Shown: piece after piece, positions 1,903 to 9,014 of the stretch
Layout of the letters: every line of letters begins with the position of its first letter
Position numbering within the stretch: position 1 is the first letter of the stretch
IMG/VR virus record: IMGVR_UViG_3300050821_011071
Length of the DNA: 20,000 nucleotides
Source: an uncultured virus (IMG/VR IMGVR_UViG_3300050821_011071)
Taxonomy: Duplodnaviria; Heunggongvirae; Uroviricota; Caudoviricetes
Direction: 5' to 3' (one strand)
Made by a program: the position numbers and the translations under genes
Notes under the pieces: model-generated
Databases searched by the model: none
Seen by the model: only the letters and a program-made list of their open reading frames with translations
What the model was told of the DNA's origin: nothing

Positions 1903-3481
1903 AAATCTCAATCTCCTCTGAAAAGTCGTTCAAAAACTGGCTCGGCGAGCCGTAAAAGCTGATGTCAAGCGTATCCGCGGCCCGAGAGCATGCGACAAAA
2001 AAGATGCGGTGTTCTTCCAGCAGCTCTCCGTCCTTATGTGGCATCAGTCCCTGTTTTACGCCGATAACGAAAACGTGCTTCCACTCCCGGCCCTTGGCTT
2101 GGTGCACCGTCGTTAGGCTGAGCGAAGGCTTCTTGTCACTCTTCGCCCCGAAGGTGAGCTTGCGGAGCCACGTTAAGAACTCCGGGACGGTCCCGCGCTT
2201 TGCGCTCATTTTAATGATGTCGTTCAGGTTCTCGATTGGGTCTTTCTCCATCGGGGAGCCTGAGTTGCGGTACACGTAAGCTAAGTTATGCGTCTCCATC
2301 AATTGCTTCATCACTTCGTGTGCCGGTCGGTCACCGAATCCACTACCCTGCTCTTTCGTGAGCTCTAGGAGGTGGCGGACCTCGTTTTGCTCCCAGACAT
2401 TCTTGCGCCCGAGTATCTTCGACTTGAGGTTTCGAGCCATCGCCATCTTTTGAACGGTCATGAGCTGGCGATTCGTGCGCGCGATAATAGCTGTGTTCGC
2501 CGGGTCGGTCACGCACCCGAGCACAATTGACGCTTCCTCAATTTCATCTCCGAATTTGGTGATGGTCGGGTCAACTCCTTCTTCTCGCATCGAAACCATG
2601 TGACTCGCTAACCCGTTGTCGACCGGGATTGTTCGTTTAAAAAAGGCGACAAGTCGTTGAGTAGAGCGGTAATTTTGTCCAAGATAAAGAGTCTTTGCTC
2701 CGGGGAAGGTCCGGGAGAAATTTGAAAGATTCCCAGATTGTGCCGAGCGCCATTCATAGATAAGCTGATTCTCGTCCCCGACGACGAAAATATTTCCATT
2801 ATATATGAGTTGGAGGAGTCTAAATTGGACCACGTCCGTATCTTGGCATTCATCGACGCTGATGTACTTTCGTTTATTTCTTTCTCTGACTTCATCGTTT
2901 GTCTCCAATAACTTAACTGCTTCCTTCATCAGTCCATGAAAATCAAGCCACCCTTGCTCGCGACTTTTCTTCTCGTAATCTCGGTACGCGGCAGCGTAAA
3001 AGTACTCCGTACCTTTGAGGTTGTGGCTCTCTTCAATCGCGCGGTCCGGGTCAATGTTCCCGCTCTGCCACTCCTCAATTTTGCTCTTGAGTGAGTTGAA
3101 AGTGGTGATGGGCGGGTACAATTTCATCAAATCTTTGATGAGCTGAAACTGCTCCCCGCGGACCGGGATGATAGTATCGCAAAGCTCGAATCCAACGTGC
3201 TCTCGCTCGCGTTGCAAAAGGTCGAGGGCGAAGCTGTGGAAAGTTCGGAATATTTCTTTAGCGTCAAGCATGCCGGTTCGTTCGACCATTTCGGTGGCCG
3301 CTGAATTCGTGAACGTCAGGTTCAGGATATCTTTTTGCGGGATGCCGTGTTTCGTAATCATCCCCATGTATCGCTGAATCAGCGTGGCGGTCTTGCCTGA
3401 GCCCGGGCCCGCGATACAAACATAGTCGCCATTGACTGCGTCCGCTACGATTTGTTGGTCCGGATTAAGATTTAAGAACAC
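1883..3481 (-). CDS. uvrD: UvrD/PcrA/Rep-family SF1 DNA helicase (compact, 532 aa)
   Basis: Motifs AGPGSGKT, LTFTN, TFHS, VDECQD, VGDENQLIYEWR, NYRS, TVHQAKGREW and FFVACSRA. GTG start. Confidence 0.95.
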   Translation of the reverse strand: MFLNLNPDQQIVADAVNGDYVCIAGPGSGKTATLIQRYMGMITKHGIPQKDILNLTFTNSAATEMVERTGMLDAKEIFRTFHSFALDLLQREREHVGFELCDTIIPVRGEQFQLIKDLMKLYPPITTFNSLKSKIEEWQSGNIDPDRAIEESHNLKGTEYFYAAAYRDYEKKSREQGWLDFHGLMKEAVKLLETNDEVRERNKRKYISVDECQDTDVVQFRLLQLIYNGNIFVVGDENQLIYEWRSAQSGNLSNFSRTFPGAKTLYLGQNYRSTQRLVAFFKRTIPVDNGLASHMVSMREEGVDPTITKFGDEIEEASIVLGCVTDPANTAIIARTNRQLMTVQKMAMARNLKSKILGRKNVWEQNEVRHLLELTKEQGSGFGDRPAHEVMKQLMETHNLAYVYRNSGSPMEKDPIENLNDIIKMSAKRGTVPEFLTWLRKLTFGAKSDKKPSLSLTTVHQAKGREWKHVFVIGVKQGLMPHKDGELLEEHRIFFVACSRAADTLDISFYGSPSQFLNDFSEEIEIYGEENS

Positions 3482-4684
3482 TTACTTGGTCACTCCAATT
3501 GCGCGGTCGATGTACTGAACCAGCGCTTGCGCCCCGTTCGTCTTGGTGTAGTTGTCAAGGAAGTCGAACAAATCTTCCCATTGAGCCAAGCTGAGAGAGT
3601 TCATATCTCCCGCGCCTGTGTGCGTGGTGGCGAACTTGCGCATCTTCATCGTGGGGCCGCCGATATTTTCGCTTGGCAGCATTCCGCCCTTCGGGAGCAC
3701 GTCGTTGTAGTACACCCGGAGGCGTTCGCGGAATTCTTTCGCTTTCTCAGGGTCGAGAGCGGCTGTCGGCGGAGCAGAGGGGGGCGCAACCGATGCCTGT
3801 GCCGGAACCGGCTGCGCCTTCTCGACCGCGACCGCGGGAGGTGCCGACACAGGAACCTCAATCGCGGGGGTCGAAACTTGTGGTGTCAAAGATGGTGTCA
3901 CAGGCTCTTGGCCGGGACTGGCAATCGAGACTGTGTTGCGACGAGCTCGCGTTCGCTTTTGTTTCGCCGGAGCCGCTGGTGCCAAGTTAGGCGGGTCGGA
4001 AATACCATAACCCGCGGGTTCTCCCGGCATTGATTTTGCCATAAGTTGCGCCTTGGCTTCGTCGCGAAGGGCTTGCTGGGCGGCGCTAAATTCTTCCGGG
4101 GTTTGGTCTATGGTAGTTTTGATTGGCTCCGAATTTGGAGTTATATCTCGGCCCGGAGAGGCGTTTGTGGACGTCGGAGGGGCGGGCGGTGGGATGACCA
4201 TAGGACTGCCTGCTAAAACGGCTCCTGAAGCCGCGGGAGGGCCGTCCGTAAGCAATTGGAGGCGAACCTCAGATTCGTCCAAAAGACCGTGCCCGGCGAA
4301 CTGTAGGGCCAATCTGCGCAAGCCCCGGGTACTGGCGGTCATTACTGCGCTGGCGAGCCGTTCGCCTCGTAAACCCTCGGTTGCCGCTGAACCTATAGAA
4401 ATCTCTCTTCGACCGGCCTTATTGGTGCCTTCTACTTCAAAACTCACAAATCCCGGGCCGTCTTCTCGGGTCATTTTAGTGACACTCACACCGTGAATTT
4501 CTCGGAGAAGTTCGGTAGCGTTTCGTTTAGCGTACAAAACAAGGCCACGCATGCCATCTTCTTGAACCATCCAGAAATAATCTAACATTCCTAGTGCCGG
4601 GTCTGGGTCAAGACCAACCGCTTTGCAAACCGCCGCGCGGTGCGCTTCTCTCTGTTCGTTTGTTAGCTCGCTTAAATTTGCCAT
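3482..4684 (-). CDS. Putative single-strand annealing/recombination protein (Bet/Rad52-like N-domain, Pro/Ala-rich linker, helical C-domain)
   Basis: AGGAG RBS. VCKAVGLDP...LYAK and AVMTASTRGLRRLAL...GLLDESE resemble phage SSAP N-domains. Adjacent to a helicase and nuclease. The function is inferred. Confidence 0.5.
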   Translation of the reverse strand: MANLSELTNEQREAHRAAVCKAVGLDPDPALGMLDYFWMVQEDGMRGLVLYAKRNATELLREIHGVSVTKMTREDGPGFVSFEVEGTNKAGRREISIGSAATEGLRGERLASAVMTASTRGLRRLALQFAGHGLLDESEVRLQLLTDGPPAASGAVLAGSPMVIPPPAPPTSTNASPGRDITPNSEPIKTTIDQTPEEFSAAQQALRDEAKAQLMAKSMPGEPAGYGISDPPNLAPAAPAKQKRTRARRNTVSIASPGQEPVTPSLTPQVSTPAIEVPVSAPPAVAVEKAQPVPAQASVAPPSAPPTAALDPEKAKEFRERLRVYYNDVLPKGGMLPSENIGGPTMKMRKFATTHTGAGDMNSLSLAQWEDLFDFLDNYTKTNGAQALVQYIDRAIGVTK

Positions 4685-4705
4685 TCAAAATCTCCTAAAA
4701 ATTAA

Positions 4706-5345
4706 ATCTTGTCTTTTCATGTCCCGTAATATCCCGTTCGGCCCCGTGCCGTCTCATCGCTTCATTTCGTGTCAAAAGAAATTTTTAATCTCGTCTTATT
4801 TCGTCCTGCCGTATCGTGTCCCACGCCGTCCCGTGCTATCGCATCCCGCCAAAGAGCAGGAGAAAACCGCCGAAGCGGCTTTCCTCTATTCTTGTTTTAC
4901 CGCGCTGCGCCGAACCATATCCCACTAAATCGCATCGTATAATATCTCGTCTTAAGAAAATTTTGGTCTTGTCCTGTTTTACCTTGTCCAATTGAATCCC
5001 GTCGTATAATGTCGGTTCCCGTCATGTCCTGAGAAAATTTTGGTCTTGTCTCATTCTATCTTATCTAATCGAACCACGTTTTGTCATTTCCCGCCAATTC
5101 GTATCATGAGAATTTTTTTTTGTCTTATCTTGTTATGCCCCGTTATACCAAATTAAATCTTATTTCGTCGTACCTTGCCGCGAGAAAATTTTAGTCTTGT
5201 CGTAGCTCATCGGGCCGATTCGGATTCTATCATGTCCGGTCATTTCCTGTCGGGTCATAAGAAAATTTTGGTCTTATCTTGTTTAATCGCATTGAGTCTG
5301 GTCCCGCCGGGTCCTGTTACATCAAGTCTCGTTCAGTCCTGTCGT
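4706..5345 (-). repeat. Non-coding array of 8 units, each 12-15 pentamers (variable NN + conserved RRY, mostly GAY), separated by a CAAAATTTTCTY linker; putative guide-RNA (VIPR-like vrRNA) array
   Basis: Units at 5271-5345, 5194-5258, 5122-5181, 5043-5107, 4966-5030, 4889-4953, 4788-4852 and 4706-4775. Linkers (+ strand ragaaaattttg-like) at 5259, 5182, 5108, 5031, 4954 and 4776. Hand count: 90 of 106 pentamers carry RRY in phase. Confidence 0.9.
4858..4887 (-). terminator. C(UUCG)G hairpin plus U tract inside the array (intrinsic terminator or processing stem)
   Basis: Minus strand reads AGAGGAAAGCCGC-TTCG-GCGGTTTTCTCCT. The G-U pairs and UUCG loop work only on the minus strand. Confidence 0.7.
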
Positions 5346-5375
5346 ATAAAGAAGGCGGCCTCTGAACAGGCCGCC
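5346..5375 (-). terminator. GC-rich hairpin between the RAMP gene and the array
   Basis: GGCGGCCT-GTTCAG-AGGCCGCC (perfect 8-bp stem) followed by TTCTTTAT, 13 nt after the stop codon. Confidence 0.65.
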
Positions 5376-5388
5376 CACCCTGTCAGAC

Positions 5389-5967
5389 TTACTTCGCCTC
5401 CGCAATCGAAAGGACCTTGAAGCGACCGCTGATACCGCCATTAGCGACGCGCATTGCTCCGAGCCCAATGAAATTCCCCGCTTCGGTCAAATGGCGAAGA
5501 AGGACATCCTTCGTGATGACCTCATCGAGAACGTGGATATCGACGTTCCCTTGCCATTCCTTGACTTGAGGGAACGCCTTGGGCACGCGCTTCGTGCCGC
5601 CGGTCATACCATCGGAAGGAACATTTAGCCAAAGAGGCTCAACTGCCTCGGCTTTAATGGTCGAACCTTTGCCGTCTTTCAAAGGAATCTGTTCAAAAAC
5701 CATCACGCCCGACTTGAAGTGCTTCGTGTAGGTCGACTTTCCTTTGCCGGGAATTTGTTCGCTGAGATATTTCGCGGCGTCGCGAAGGCAGTTTTTCAAA
5801 GAGAGCGGGCTAAGCACGACGTTGCCCTGTTCATCTTTGTGCAACCGCTCCGACCACGTACGCTCTTCGTACTCAGCGTGTGATTCTTTGTTCAACTTAG
5901 GCACAACGTATTGCCGACCGAATAGCATCGGAGTCGTGCCTTGTAGCTTCACTGTGTATACCTTCAT
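5389..5967 (-). CDS. Stand-alone Cas7/Csm3-like RAMP protein (Vipr-like RNA-binding effector), 192 aa
   Basis: RAMP hallmarks: beta1 VKLQGTTPMLFG, VVLSPLSLKNCLRDAA (compare IPGSSLKGxLR), and a C-terminal Gly-rich loop GNFIGLGAMRVANGGISGRFKV. No other cas genes in the window. Confidence 0.8.
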   Translation of the reverse strand: MKVYTVKLQGTTPMLFGRQYVVPKLNKESHAEYEERTWSERLHKDEQGNVVLSPLSLKNCLRDAAKYLSEQIPGKGKSTYTKHFKSGVMVFEQIPLKDGKGSTIKAEAVEPLWLNVPSDGMTGGTKRVPKAFPQVKEWQGNVDIHVLDEVITKDVLLRHLTEAGNFIGLGAMRVANGGISGRFKVLSIAEAK

Positions 5968-6449
5968 TTTATTGCCTTTTTCTGCCCGACTTTTGAGTAC
6001 GGGCTTTTTGGCGGCTCTGCCTCAACTATGCTGTGCGGTCGGACTGAGCCTGTGCGAGAGACGGGTGGTGCTGTCCTCGATTTAGCTTCTCCCAACTCTA
6101 CAGGCGCTATGCTGATGGGTCCGTCAAAACCTATCGGTCGGTGATAAACTAATACAGAATCACCGGACAAGATTTCTTTAAGCTTGTGCTGAAAGAAGCT
6201 AACCATATCAGGAGATAATTTGTACCACTCGTCTCCGCCGCTTCCGATGCGATACTCTTCGAAGCGAAAATGAATTTCTGCTTCTAGCGGCTGTCCTCCG
6301 ATTAAGGTAAAAAGGACCAGCAACTTGCGGTAGTTTCCGGCCTTGTATCCGGCTGGCCGGTTAACTGGGTCAACTGAATGCCCTATTTTGACTAAGGACG
6401 GGTCGCCGCCTTCTTCAATTAGTATATAAACATAATCTGGTCTTGTCAA
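5964..6449 (-). CDS. GIY-YIG superfamily protein (T5orf172/MUG113-like) with low-complexity C-terminal tail
   Basis: YVYIL...LVKIGHS.DP..R....AGN...LE..IH..F..YRI....EWY. TTG start. ATGA overlap with the RAMP gene. Confidence 0.8.
   Translation of the reverse strand: MTRPDYVYILIEEGGDPSLVKIGHSVDPVNRPAGYKAGNYRKLLVLFTLIGGQPLEAEIHFRFEEYRIGSGGDEWYKLSPDMVSFFQHKLKEILSGDSVLVYHRPIGFDGPISIAPVELGEAKSRTAPPVSRTGSVRPHSIVEAEPPKSPYSKVGQKKAIK
5984..6009. other. Stem-loop just upstream of the RAMP start codon
   Basis: GCCCGACT-TTTG-AGT(A)CGGGC followed by TTTTT on the + strand. Could be an antisense terminator or a leader structure. Confidence 0.4.
6421..6449 (-). promoter_or_regulatory. Sigma70-type promoter P2, TTGACA-N17-TATACT, embedded in the first 10 codons of the GIY-YIG gene
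   Basis: -35 at 6449-6444, -10 at 6426-6421, 17-nt spacer. Confidence 0.65.
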
Positions 6450-6509
6450 GGTGCACCCTATTGCATCAAATTAAATCACGGCGCTTCGCATCAAGTCGCT
6501 ACAAAAAAT

Positions 6510-6538
6510 ATCCTATCATAAGTACTAGAGCTTGTCAA
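6510..6538 (-). promoter_or_regulatory. Sigma70-type promoter P1, TTGACA-N17-TAGGAT with extended TGn
   Basis: -35 at 6538-6533 and -10 at 6515-6510, immediately after the polymerase stop codon. Confidence 0.7.
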
Positions 6539-6541
6539 GCA

Positions 6542-7633
6542 CTATTTATGGTAGAACGAATCTTCAAAACCATCAGCACCAAGTAATAAACCCGGGGCCC
6601 AACTCACCGGGCGGCTCATAATCTCGACCATATCCTCGACTCCCGGGCTAAACGGGTCATCCGGAACCAGACAGATTCCTTCGTCGTGAACGTGTCCGAC
6701 GACCGGCATGTCTTGTTCCTCGAATTCGAGGAGCTTTACCGCGAGGACATCGCGTGCAATCGCTTGCACAAGATTTTCAAAGAGCTTCCCGCCGTGAGAA
6801 GTGGTGTATCCCCAAACCCCGGTGACTTGGTCGGCTCCGGCATAAACCAGCGCGGGGCGGTACACCGGACGCTCTTCGCCGGTCTGCTGGTCTTTCTGGG
6901 TCCACGGCATCAAAGTATTTTCCATGCGCGCGTCGATGTAATGCAGGCGGCGACCGCTGGGAAGCTGCATACGCATCAAGCTGTCGCGGCCCGCTATATT
7001 GAGCTTATCGATTAGCACGCAGCCGCCGGGACCGACGCGGCGAGTTGTCGCCGGGTGGTTCGGGTCCATTACGTCAGCGACCGCGTCTTCCAACGTCTTC
7101 CAGAACGCCGGAATCTCTGCGTACGCTTCTCGGAACATCCGCACAACGAAATGGGCTTGCTCTTGGTCCATCTCGACGCCCATGTTCCACGCGTAGCCCC
7201 AAAGGCCGGTGCGGATGCGGTCGTAAACGGTCGGACACGCACAGTACTTCTTGCCGAATTGCTCTGCATCACACGTCTCGTCGTGTTCCTTGTGCCCGTG
7301 CTTCCCGCGGCCCCACTGGCCTCCGCCTAGTCGATAGATAGCGCCGAGCACGCCGGGCTTCGCGGTCTGACGTTTCTTTTTGGCTTCAATTTGCGCGGCT
7401 TCGCCGTTCTTGTCCTTGTAATCGGCCCAAAGTTTTTCGTACGGGATTCCGTACATCTTACCAGCGAAATCCAAATATGGGTCTTTACCGTTCGGATAAA
7501 AGACACCGAAGGGGTCGGTGAACGGTTCGAAAACATTCATGAGCGGACCACAATCCGCTAACCAAGCACCCACACGGGTCTCAATTGCATTCAGGTCGCA
7601 GACATTGAAGCGTTGAATCACTTTAAAATCCAT
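6542..7633 (-). CDS. polA: DNA polymerase family A, C-terminal part (motifs A, B, C)
   Basis: Motif A VCDLNAIETRV, motif B RQTAKPGVLGAIY, GGKLFENLVQAIARD, and motif C HVHDE. Alternative GTG start at 7621. Confidence 0.92.
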   Translation of the reverse strand: MDFKVIQRFNVCDLNAIETRVGAWLADCGPLMNVFEPFTDPFGVFYPNGKDPYLDFAGKMYGIPYEKLWADYKDKNGEAAQIEAKKKRQTAKPGVLGAIYRLGGGQWGRGKHGHKEHDETCDAEQFGKKYCACPTVYDRIRTGLWGYAWNMGVEMDQEQAHFVVRMFREAYAEIPAFWKTLEDAVADVMDPNHPATTRRVGPGGCVLIDKLNIAGRDSLMRMQLPSGRRLHYIDARMENTLMPWTQKDQQTGEERPVYRPALVYAGADQVTGVWGYTTSHGGKLFENLVQAIARDVLAVKLLEFEEQDMPVVGHVHDEGICLVPDDPFSPGVEDMVEIMSRPVSWAPGLLLGADGFEDSFYHK

Positions 7634-7782
7634 CCTTCTTTGTGCTCATCCGTCAGTTCTTCGAATACGTGCGCTGGGTCATCCTTCGTCATAGCCGAGC
7701 GAGTCCAGCGCCAGTATGTGCCGCGCCAGTAATACAAAAGCTCGTTCACTTTATAACCTATAAATGTGAATTCTTCTTTCAT
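7618..7782 (-). CDS. Small hypothetical protein (54 aa) inserted between the polymerase halves
   Basis: ATG at 7782 overlaps the stop of the N-half (ATGA). Its TGA overlaps the in-frame GTG of the C-half (GTGA). Confidence 0.55.
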   Translation of the reverse strand: MKEEFTFIGYKVNELLYYWRGTYWRWTRSAMTKDDPAHVFEELTDEHKEGWILK

Positions 7783-9014
7783 GCGACTCTCGGTGCGACG
7801 AACACGGTGCGGATGCAATTCTTGATAACAAGCAACACGCTGCCCGGCTTCCCGGTCTTTTCGTCTTTGAAGCGCTCTTTGATGCCCTCATAATCCTCTG
7901 CGTAAATCAACGCGCGAGCATCTTCCAAATTTTTTCGCTTTTCAAAAGTACCGTCAGGACGAGCAAAATTATGAAGCTGGACAGCGTTACCAGACCAACG
8001 ACCACAACGGGAAGAACCCATAAATATAAACTGATTCCGTAATCTACCATCTGGGCACACCTGTCTCAAGATTGCAGCCAGTTTTGTATAACTGGTGCTC
8101 GCGGCCTCGCGGCGCGCTTTCAAAACTTCTCGGCACTCTGGGGTAATCTTGGTCTCGGGGTCTTTCAAGACCGCGTCGACCGTTTCTTTGCGCAGCGTAT
8201 TGAACAAGTAGCCGCGCGCTCTCACCCACGGCAAAAGTTGCGCCTGACTATTCGCGTTCTCTAACCCGGTGAGTTTGTTTTGGCGGTCGAGGGCTTCTTT
8301 CTTGGCCCGGAGAGCAAGTCGTAAAGCCTTTTGTACAAAATCCACGTCAACAGGCATTCCGCGGTCGTTGACTCTCTGGTCAAATACCCAAAGTTTTCTC
8401 TCAAAAGGAGGGAGAGGGAGGGCCCCGAGAATCTCCATTCGTCGGCTAATTTCTTCTTCGGTGGTAACATCTTGTGCTCCATATTCGCAAAATTCTTTCC
8501 ACTCTTTGGGGTGTGAAGTCCAGTCGTTGAAATAGACTCCGCCACCTTCTTTTTTCTTGCGAGTCTTGGGCAACGAGAATAAATCAATCAGCGCTTCGCC
8601 GCGCTTGTCCTTGCGAAGATTTGCGGGCAAATCGAGAACGTCGCCAACCTCCTCCAAGCTCGCGGGCATCGAAAGATATCGCGCACCGACTTGAGGGTCT
8701 AAGAATTTAGAGGCAGGAATTGTGATGCCGACTTTGAATTGCGTTATGTAGCGCTCAAAAGCAGAGTTGAACGCAGAGAAGTAGTAGTCCGAGCTTGGGT
8801 CTGCGATTACTCGAAGAATTGAGCCTAGGGGGTCTGGTAGTTCTGGGTGGATGTGAGGGAACCACTGGTCGACAAAATTGGTCCCGTGAACCTTATATGA
8901 GAGCATAAGAATACCGGTTTCCGGGTGATTAGCGTAATTGTAAAGACCAACGGAGTTCTTGCCGCTAAGTTCTGCGGTGCCTTTGGTCTCGTAATCGCCT
9001 CTCAGTATTCTCAT
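7779..9014 (-). CDS. polA: DNA polymerase family A, N-terminal part (3'-5' exonuclease, thumb, start of palm)
   Basis: Exo motifs DYET, AFNSAFE and YGAQDV; also VNDRGMPVD, RCGRWSG..VQLHN, and IRTVFVAP. ATG at 9014 overlaps the primase stop. Confidence 0.92.
   Translation of the reverse strand: MRILRGDYETKGTAELSGKNSVGLYNYANHPETGILMLSYKVHGTNFVDQWFPHIHPELPDPLGSILRVIADPSSDYYFSAFNSAFERYITQFKVGITIPASKFLDPQVGARYLSMPASLEEVGDVLDLPANLRKDKRGEALIDLFSLPKTRKKKEGGGVYFNDWTSHPKEWKEFCEYGAQDVTTEEEISRRMEILGALPLPPFERKLWVFDQRVNDRGMPVDVDFVQKALRLALRAKKEALDRQNKLTGLENANSQAQLLPWVRARGYLFNTLRKETVDAVLKDPETKITPECREVLKARREAASTSYTKLAAILRQVCPDGRLRNQFIFMGSSRCGRWSGNAVQLHNFARPDGTFEKRKNLEDARALIYAEDYEGIKERFKDEKTGKPGSVLLVIKNCIRTVFVAPRVA

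Follow-up and report, generated by a model that had tools for sequence, protein, structure and literature searches.

VIPR systems, whose description dates from 2026 and from which class 1 CRISPR is proposed to descend, comprise seven types in the available text of the discovery preprint, all with GGY/NN 'or a related consensus', and the alternatives listed there (NNNGG, YNNNG and NNNNG) all have G at scaffold position 2 (10.64898/2026.04.26.720920). According to the same text, the NN bases pair with the target while one target base, usually the wobble base, is skipped, and silencing was abolished when the GGY of SUSP1 was perturbed, a GGY>GAY guide being among the substitutions tested (10.64898/2026.04.26.720920). 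Predicted nuclease accessory genes are tied to host-defence VIPR types in the published text available. In the cryo-EM account of SUSP1 Vipr, as far as its text could be consulted, G1 is read by H17 and D177, G2 is read by R138 and W178 with R138 cradling the base, and the Y3 pocket includes R179 (10.64898/2026.04.26.720927). Non-GGY motifs beside Vipr-like folds were reported for 21 clusters with 6,318 sequences (10.64898/2026.10.21.760802, section 2.3, Fig. S10), and GAC/NN and CAC/NN units are named among these non-canonical clusters; the accessible passages of that work hold neither a residue-level explanation nor a test of the targeting rule ('G-loop' and 'arginine', 0 occurrences). Satellite decoy guides were described to hijack SUSP1 Vipr (10.64898/2026.10.15.759431, section 7), and 'G-loop' has 0 occurrences in the accessible text of that work. 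Since GAC/NN arrays beside Vipr folds have already been reported (10.64898/2026.10.21.760802), the GAY variant itself is not new. In the texts available, the VIPR scaffold has hitherto been treated as GGY, with GAC/NN noted once and given no mechanism.

The window (the whole stretch of 20,000 nucleotides that was analysed) encodes a DNA polymerase, a UvrD helicase, a primase-polymerase and nucleases, and was read as phage DNA. The family-A-like DNA polymerase (phrog_17) is located in two ORFs (9089-7779 and 7633-6542) about 150 bp apart, which may reflect a frameshift, an element lying between them or a naturally split gene. On the minus strand from 5348 to 4709, eight tracts with 12-16 phased pentamers apiece were found, with short A/T-rich linkers between them, and a ninth (unit 0) with a promoter-like site upstream was found beyond the region covered by the first-pass annotation of this DNA (Table 1). 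The A/T-rich linker (~12 nt) is conserved after seven of the eight array units, with a hairpin instead after unit 6, and a similar linker is also present in L104 (loci of relatives are given by L numbers). At its 3' end, unit 0 runs into the first part of the GIY-YIG-like ORF, and the promoter-like site there may be the vipr promoter or a chance match. Promoter-like sites in 4500-6700 numbered 4, as compared with 1.8 +/- 1.5 in shuffles, and the sites with a GC-rich hairpin and T run numbered 3, as compared with 2.7 in shuffles (no excess). No notable structure was found in the nine units by a tool without pseudoknot modelling (folding z-scores from -0.9 to +1.2), and the Rfam search of 4500-6700 gave no match. 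A single RNA-library contig (with a small share of words) covers only 5401-5657 within vipr, and no RNA reads were found over the array in these contig data, which cannot reveal small RNAs. The Pro/Ala-rich 400-aa ORF that adjoins the array had no Pfam or PHROG match, and its relatives among the first 195 loci were identical copies only.

Table 1. Features of the putative VIPR locus in the window, in the order of transcription on the minus strand.
Feature	Positions	Strand	Remarks
Sigma-70-type promoter-like site (10/12, extended -10)	6510..6538	-	Just upstream of unit 0; consensus match only
vrRNA-like unit 0	6433..6497	-	13 GAY-dominated pentamers; ends like the array units
Second promoter-like site (11/12 of sigma-70 consensus)	6421..6449	-	In the 3' end of unit 0 and the first GIY-YIG-like codons
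T5orf172/MUG113 (GIY-YIG-like) gene, 161 aa	5964..6449	-	Stop overlaps the vipr start
vipr, 192-aa single-RRM RAMP with G-loop	5389..5967	-	Residues 171 = Ala, 173 = Arg, 132 = Phe
GC-rich hairpin and T run between vipr and the array	5353..5376	-	Terminator-like or processing stem
vrRNA-like unit 1	5269..5348	-	16 pentamers
Unit 2	5192..5256	-	13 pentamers
Unit 3	5120..5179	-	12 pentamers
Unit 4	5041..5105	-	13 pentamers
Unit 5 (example unit of the first-pass annotation)	4964..5028	-	13 pentamers
Unit 6	4887..4951	-	13 pentamers
10-bp hairpin between units 6 and 7, substituting for the A/T linker	4861..4884	-	
Unit 7	4786..4850	-	13 pentamers
Unit 8	4709..4773	-	13 pentamers; the ribosome-binding region of the 400-aa ORF (4684-3482) comes next

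The triplets in the 106 pentamers of the eight array units were recounted as GAC 34, GAT 22, AAY 16, GGY 15, GAA 9, AGY 2 and other 8, which differs by one pentamer from the earlier hand count (34, 23, 16, 15, 9, 2 and 7, respectively); the example unit given earlier (5030-4966) was correct in sequence. GAY was present in 56 and RRY in 89 of the 106 pentamers. Triplet position 2 was occupied by A in 87, G in 18, C in 1 and T in 0 of them, and the information at pentamer positions 1-5 was 0.95, 1.27, 0.68, 0.20 and 0.04 bits, respectively. The departures from GAY at positions 1 and 2 were mostly purine transitions. One phase is kept per unit and shifts solely at the A/T-rich linkers, and indels were found inside none of the nine units, in agreement with the first-pass annotation. 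The NN dinucleotides, which had been said to vary freely, do not do so fully: 15 of the 16 kinds are present, and AA (19/106) is concentrated in the last units preceding each linker.

The period-5 autocorrelation (mean of lags 5-25) was 0.381, as compared with 0.268 +/- 0.008 in 1000 dinucleotide-preserving shuffles (shuffle maximum 0.292; z=14), and the signal was restricted to the array region of the window, so the observation of a 5-nt period stands. A decayed microsatellite or a chance periodicity without relation to the neighbouring gene, the former of which had already been argued against in the first-pass annotation, could draw only on the fact that slippage readily creates short repeats in general; it is refuted by the z value, by the phased XYZ/NN tracts beside 164 of the 189 full-length homologues and by the way in which the triplet tracks a residue of the protein (see below), and it was given next to no probability.

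The 192-aa ORF directly upstream of the array had no Pfam family above the cut-off. Its sole significant PDB sequence match was SUSP1 Vipr (36PP_D, E 8e-4), which was matched at E 3e-8 when a 91-sequence profile was used, and its PHROG match was phrog_4652. The structure model (pLDDT 96.6) has a RAMP fold, and its top Foldseek matches were Cas7-like RAMPs (TM ~0.5-0.6) in a library that predates the Vipr structures. H17, R138, D177, W178 and R179 of SUSP1 were aligned to G17, F132, A171, M172 and R173 of the window, respectively; the last four pairs were the same in both SUSP1 alignments, and the pair at position 17 came from a weak pairwise alignment. Only R179 (R173 in the window) is retained among the five. 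Residue 132 is Phe in 91 of 91 aligned homologues, and because Phe132 is invariant and the arginine for G2 of SUSP1 is absent, another residue must favour G2 in the Vipr family of the window. The closest relative among GTDB genomes was 52% identical, and annotated phages gave one match at 26%.

The 161-aa neighbour matched Pfam MUG113 with 27.8 bits (cut-off 22.3) and T5orf172 with 20.1 (cut-off 20), with an atlas value of 0.92. Homologues of this GIY-YIG-like gene were found directly upstream of vipr in L102, L103 and L104, the three nearest loci that are not identical to the window (48, 48 and 34% identity, respectively), and none beside vipr in more distant loci among the first 195 loci; the coupling was thus seen only in the clade of the window. 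The gene is a candidate accessory (vap) gene. L102 and L103 are probably one phage. L100 and L101 share vipr and the compared neighbours with the window without any difference and so were not taken as independent. No cas families were found among the neighbours scanned (11 and 10 proteins), which gave phage replication families instead, and no CRISPR-type repeats were found in 3000-8000. The combination of the phased array, the Vipr homology and the RAMP fold identifies a phage VIPR locus with a non-canonical scaffold; the assignment to VIPR was considered almost certain, and the locus is VIPR in the broad sense, not canonical GGY/type II. In this broad sense a VIPR locus is minimal and usually viral, and has a stand-alone small RAMP flanked, on the strand of its gene, by non-coding tracts of ~9-16 pentamers that each carry a conserved 3' extension.

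For the comparison of scaffolds, four scans were run and gave 195 loci, 189 of them with the full ORF and 164 with a scaffold label from a motif-free caller and a filter for [G/C][A/G/T]Y, by which purine-third and A-first scaffolds were dropped. The non-redundant set consisted of 120 relatives (<90% identity), in which the scaffolds were GG in 51, GA in 30, CG in 20, GT in 10, CT in 5 and CA in 4, so that GAY is common among the relatives. When the triplet consensus was mapped onto the phylogeny, as had been proposed earlier, switches of scaffold base 2 recurred across the tree, with 17 A/G changes on the best tree (weakly supported). The scaffold had been ascribed in the first-pass annotation to a RAMP clade with altered or relaxed triplet specificity. 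The RAMP is confirmed as Vipr and its preference does differ from GGY in step with the protein, but a single clade is contradicted by the six scaffold types in 120 relatives and the 17 changes at base 2, and relaxation is not a trait of the class: the median of exact triplet matches was 87% in 29 GA loci versus 72% in 43 GG loci, the GA arrays being the stricter ones as a class. Relaxation fits the window only, where exact GAY (52%) is near the bottom of the range of 48-100% over the 29 GA loci.

This low value, together with the higher ones of the close relatives (L102, 91%; L104, 72%) and the predominance of purine transitions among the departures at positions 1 and 2, is what would be expected if a once strict GAY array were drifting by transitions and remained partly functional. 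Such decay was considered very unlikely for the window, which has nine indel-free units, a purine at position 2 of 105/106 pentamers, conserved linkers, an uninterrupted vipr frame and promoter-like sites.

Several further features of the scaffolds were recorded. Scaffolds outside the label filter were seen in L067, L076, L119 and L190 (AGC, AGT, ATA/ATG and ATT). C at scaffold position 1 was associated with thumb positions 116-117 (CG, CA and CT loci, e.g. L005, L041, L050, L167 and L188), Pro117 being replaced by Asn in 16 of 29 C-type loci and in 0 of 91 G-type loci, which may reflect a second code position or a clade effect. The conserved linkers between the GAY units of L020 (5531-6220) differ from those of the window in being longer and in having a short stem, and by analogy with what is described for some VIPR types these are possibly ribozyme-type spacers.

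The protein residue that goes with scaffold base 2 was searched by a mutual-information scan of all alignment columns, in which residue 171 of the G-loop was top with 0.55 (next column, 0.34). Among the 120 relatives, Arg171 was found with G at base 2 in 69, with A in 3 and with T in 9 rows, residues other than Arg with A in 31, G in 1 and T in 6 rows, and one row was gapped. For the G/A cases only, Arg171 thus goes with G in 69/72 and any other residue with A in 31/32 (Fisher p 7e-21; 1e-16 at <70% identity), and nine different residues occupy position 171 in the 31 non-Arg rows with A. The window has Ala171 and a GAY array. When columns 169-176 were left out of the tree, each of the 13 Arg171 changes coincided with one at base 2 (17 changes between G and A), as compared with an average of 2.9 and a maximum of 10 coincident changes for 93 control columns with 10-22 changes. 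Base 2 was predicted correctly from residue 171 in 100 and from the nearest relative in 82 of 104 rows.

For a held-out prediction, which was fixed in writing before a new scan, peptide patterns outside the G-loop were used; 80 loci were found, 33 of which were <90% identical to the earlier ones and 28 of which remained after de-duplication. Arg171 was found there with G in 15, A in 1, T in 3 and no label in 1, and the other residues with A in 4, G in 0, T in 2 and no label in 2, so 19 of the 20 G/A loci were correctly predicted (p 0.001). Arg donates hydrogen bonds to a keto oxygen (O6 of G or O4 of U), which fits the occurrence of Arg171 with G and T and rarely with A. We infer that residue 171 touches base 2 directly; since the equivalent D177 of SUSP1 contacts G1 and not G2, the contact may be indirect. 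At the level of sequence, the association hints at a simple protein-RNA code.

The same locus could be VIPR with residue 171 not the cause and any purine tolerated at position 2, the GAY scaffold and the G-loop changes travelling together through shared descent or through another residue (e.g. 112 or the segment around 15-17). This was considered unlikely, although several observations speak for it. Support for the tree is low, with 18 of 117 branches starred, and it offers few well-supported independent contrasts, namely 2-3 independent pairs on starred branches (sign test p 0.5). Four loci combine Arg with A in 148 loci (L065 and L313 with clean GAC, L146 with CAC and L037 with mixed GAC/GGC), and the reverse exception is L167 (CGC with Thr171). 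Columns 15 and 112 also co-change (8/11 and 10/18, respectively), and 18 of the 106 pentamers in the window itself carry G at position 2. Shared descent or tolerance of any purine is opposed by the nine replacement residues, all with A, by the complete coincidence of the Arg171 changes with base 2, by the better prediction from residue 171 than from the nearest relative, by the held-out result and by the GA arrays being tighter than the GG arrays; the effect of GGY perturbation in SUSP1, with GGY>GAY among the tested guides, also stands against it in the text available (10.64898/2026.04.26.720920).

Other G-loop positions were also seen to vary with the scaffold. Leu or Met at position 170 was often found with the U-rich scaffolds GTT and ATT (L092, L137, L289, L291, L339 and L190), and it was also found with a GAC scaffold in L107, L151 and L283. 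Three of the four Ala173 loci with a called tract have A at scaffold position 3 (L150, L154 and L290; GCA/GAA and CGA), and in the fourth, L114, GAC occurs together with GAA and GCC; the third base is a purine in L119, which keeps Arg173. The loss of the otherwise near-invariant Arg173 with A at position 3 is in line with the Y3 pocket of SUSP1.

For the targeting rule, 381 tracts from 120 loci were searched against vipr coding sequences. Two tracts, from L188 (CGY) and L033 (GTY), matched 20/20 with a 1-nt skip in the wobble phase, and skips of 0 and 2 nt reached at best 18 and 17 of 20, respectively. Both guides (L188:5578-5640 and L033:5416-5470) lie directly after their own vipr and read G-loop codons of vipr genes, that of L188 from the codon of residue 171 onwards. 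The L188 guide matched other vipr genes at best in 24/24 and its own in 21/24 bases, and the L033 guide in 21/22 and 18/22, respectively. At least 21/24 bases of the L188 guide were matched in 29 of 67 GG loci as compared with 1 of 41 GA loci (not de-duplicated). These guides may serve for anti-VIPR targeting or for autoregulation, for which the 21/24 match of L188 to its own gene leaves room. Two non-GGY scaffolds thus keep the 1-nt-skip code, the targeting code looks unchanged in non-GGY scaffolds as judged from these sequence matches, and from the CGY and GTY relatives we infer the 1-nt skip rule for GAY guides as well. The first-pass annotation had seen a possible new code variant in the triplet; this description goes too far, since the triplet is a protein-bound scaffold, no sign of a changed NN code was found and GAC/NN is already in print.

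The GAY guides were then taken through exact scans. In viral_contigs, 8-unit exact scans with window units 1, 2 and 6 gave no target above chance level: 4 matches with at most 7/16 further bases agreeing, 6 matches with at most 5/12 and 69 matches with at most 6/12, respectively. Protein-like readings of the best unit-1 and unit-2 matches (L265 and L269) were absent from the listed ORFs and were counted as chance. The GAY guide of L107 gave 0 matches with nine exact units, and that of L020 gave 8 matches with eight exact units, at most 9/20 further bases agreeing. Local matches of the L107 and L020 guides (20/22) were rejected as near chance, the 0-nt-skip control also reaching 20; the ORFs concerned are presumably methyltransferase-like and ATPase-like, to judge from their motifs. 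Within loci, self-targeting showed a slight excess at skip 1 (8 tracts with at least 17/20, versus 2 and 3 at the other skips). Guides common to different loci were not found, and in no class, GG guides included, did NN show significant codon-phase overdispersion (z <=1.1).

A true new code, with GAY systems recognising their targets in some other way (a skip of a different length, or RNA as the target), would account for GAY guides having no target by the 1-nt rule in five exact scans and the local searches, and the window protein does differ from SUSP1 at H17, R138, D177 and W178. As the scans were exact-match only and no host was found, however, a missed GAY target is expected. Two non-GGY scaffolds of the protein family of the window obey the 1-nt rule without deviation, the period is still that of a pentamer and no excess was seen for 0- or 2-nt skips in the local searches; a new code was regarded as highly improbable.

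The preferred reading as a whole, with a probability of roughly 0.7, is a VIPR repressor with a GAY/NN scaffold, for which residue 171 is a main determinant. Each unit would be transcribed and cut or terminated at the A/U-rich linker to give a guide of ~75 nt, on which Vipr protomers would polymerise, one per pentamer, with the triplet flipped out. The GAY triplet would be the scaffold held by the protein, and double-stranded DNA would be read by the NN pairs, which would pass over one target base per unit. The preference for GAY would be set by the protein, Arg171 favouring G (sometimes U) at base 2 and the loss of Arg (Ala here) favouring A. The outcome would be the silencing of genes of competing phages or other mobile elements.

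A wider joint reading, in which the Vipr family of the window uses a modular G-loop protein-RNA code, is tentative and, taken with all its parts, was regarded as rather doubtful. Arg171 would select G or U, the keto bases, at position 2, which would become A once this Arg is lost, and Arg173 would enforce a pyrimidine at position 3, where A would be allowed without it. Changing the scaffold would be a step in an arms race: rival guides would hit G-loop codons and skip the wobble base, so that only amino-acid changes escape, satellite decoy guides would require a compatible scaffold, and a GAY system would therefore escape both. GAY would further be orthogonal to GGY and would provide independent programmable repressors with a one-residue switch. 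The bias of the L188 matches towards GG over GA loci and the satellite decoys suggest, as a speculation, why scaffolds might switch often.

The window locus alone is one more member of an already reported variant. New here are the tracking of residue 171 by base 2, the skip-rule evidence from non-GGY relatives and the GIY-YIG-like neighbour; among the searchable VIPR texts, the link with residue 171 is not in print. It offers a single G-loop residue as the putative determinant of scaffold base 2, which is cheap to test. If it holds, natural Vipr variants would be orthogonal guide-protein pairs for multiplexed repression, and array callers restricted to GGY would miss about half of the arrays of the family (69/120 non-redundant loci are not GG).

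In comparison with canonical GGY/NN VIPR (SUSP1 and P. fulva type II), the window shares a phage single-RRM RAMP of ~20 kDa, a two-gene operon preceded by one guide unit and followed by an array, units of 12-16 pentamers, a pyrimidine as the third base and variable NN, and its order of guide unit, accessory gene, vipr and guide array resembles the layout of SUSP1. It differs in the scaffold (GAY 56/106, GGY 15/106), in having G, F, A and M where SUSP1 has H17, R138, D177 and W178, in a short unstructured A/U-rich linker instead of the ~40-nt pseudoknot tail, and in the GIY-YIG-like neighbour, 'GIY' being absent from the accessible supplement text of that paper. Unlike the host-defence VIPR types with nuclease accessory genes, the GIY-YIG-like gene of the window sits in a phage. 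Class 1 CRISPR RAMPs (Cas7/Csm3 and type VII Cas7) share the fold of RRM, thumb and G-loop with the Vipr of the window, whose guide is a pentamer tract and not a contiguous spacer, with no repeat-spacer array in 3000-8000. The non-canonical GAC/NN and CAC/NN clusters, according to the passages accessible, have the same class of scaffold as the window, beside a Vipr-like fold (10.64898/2026.10.21.760802).
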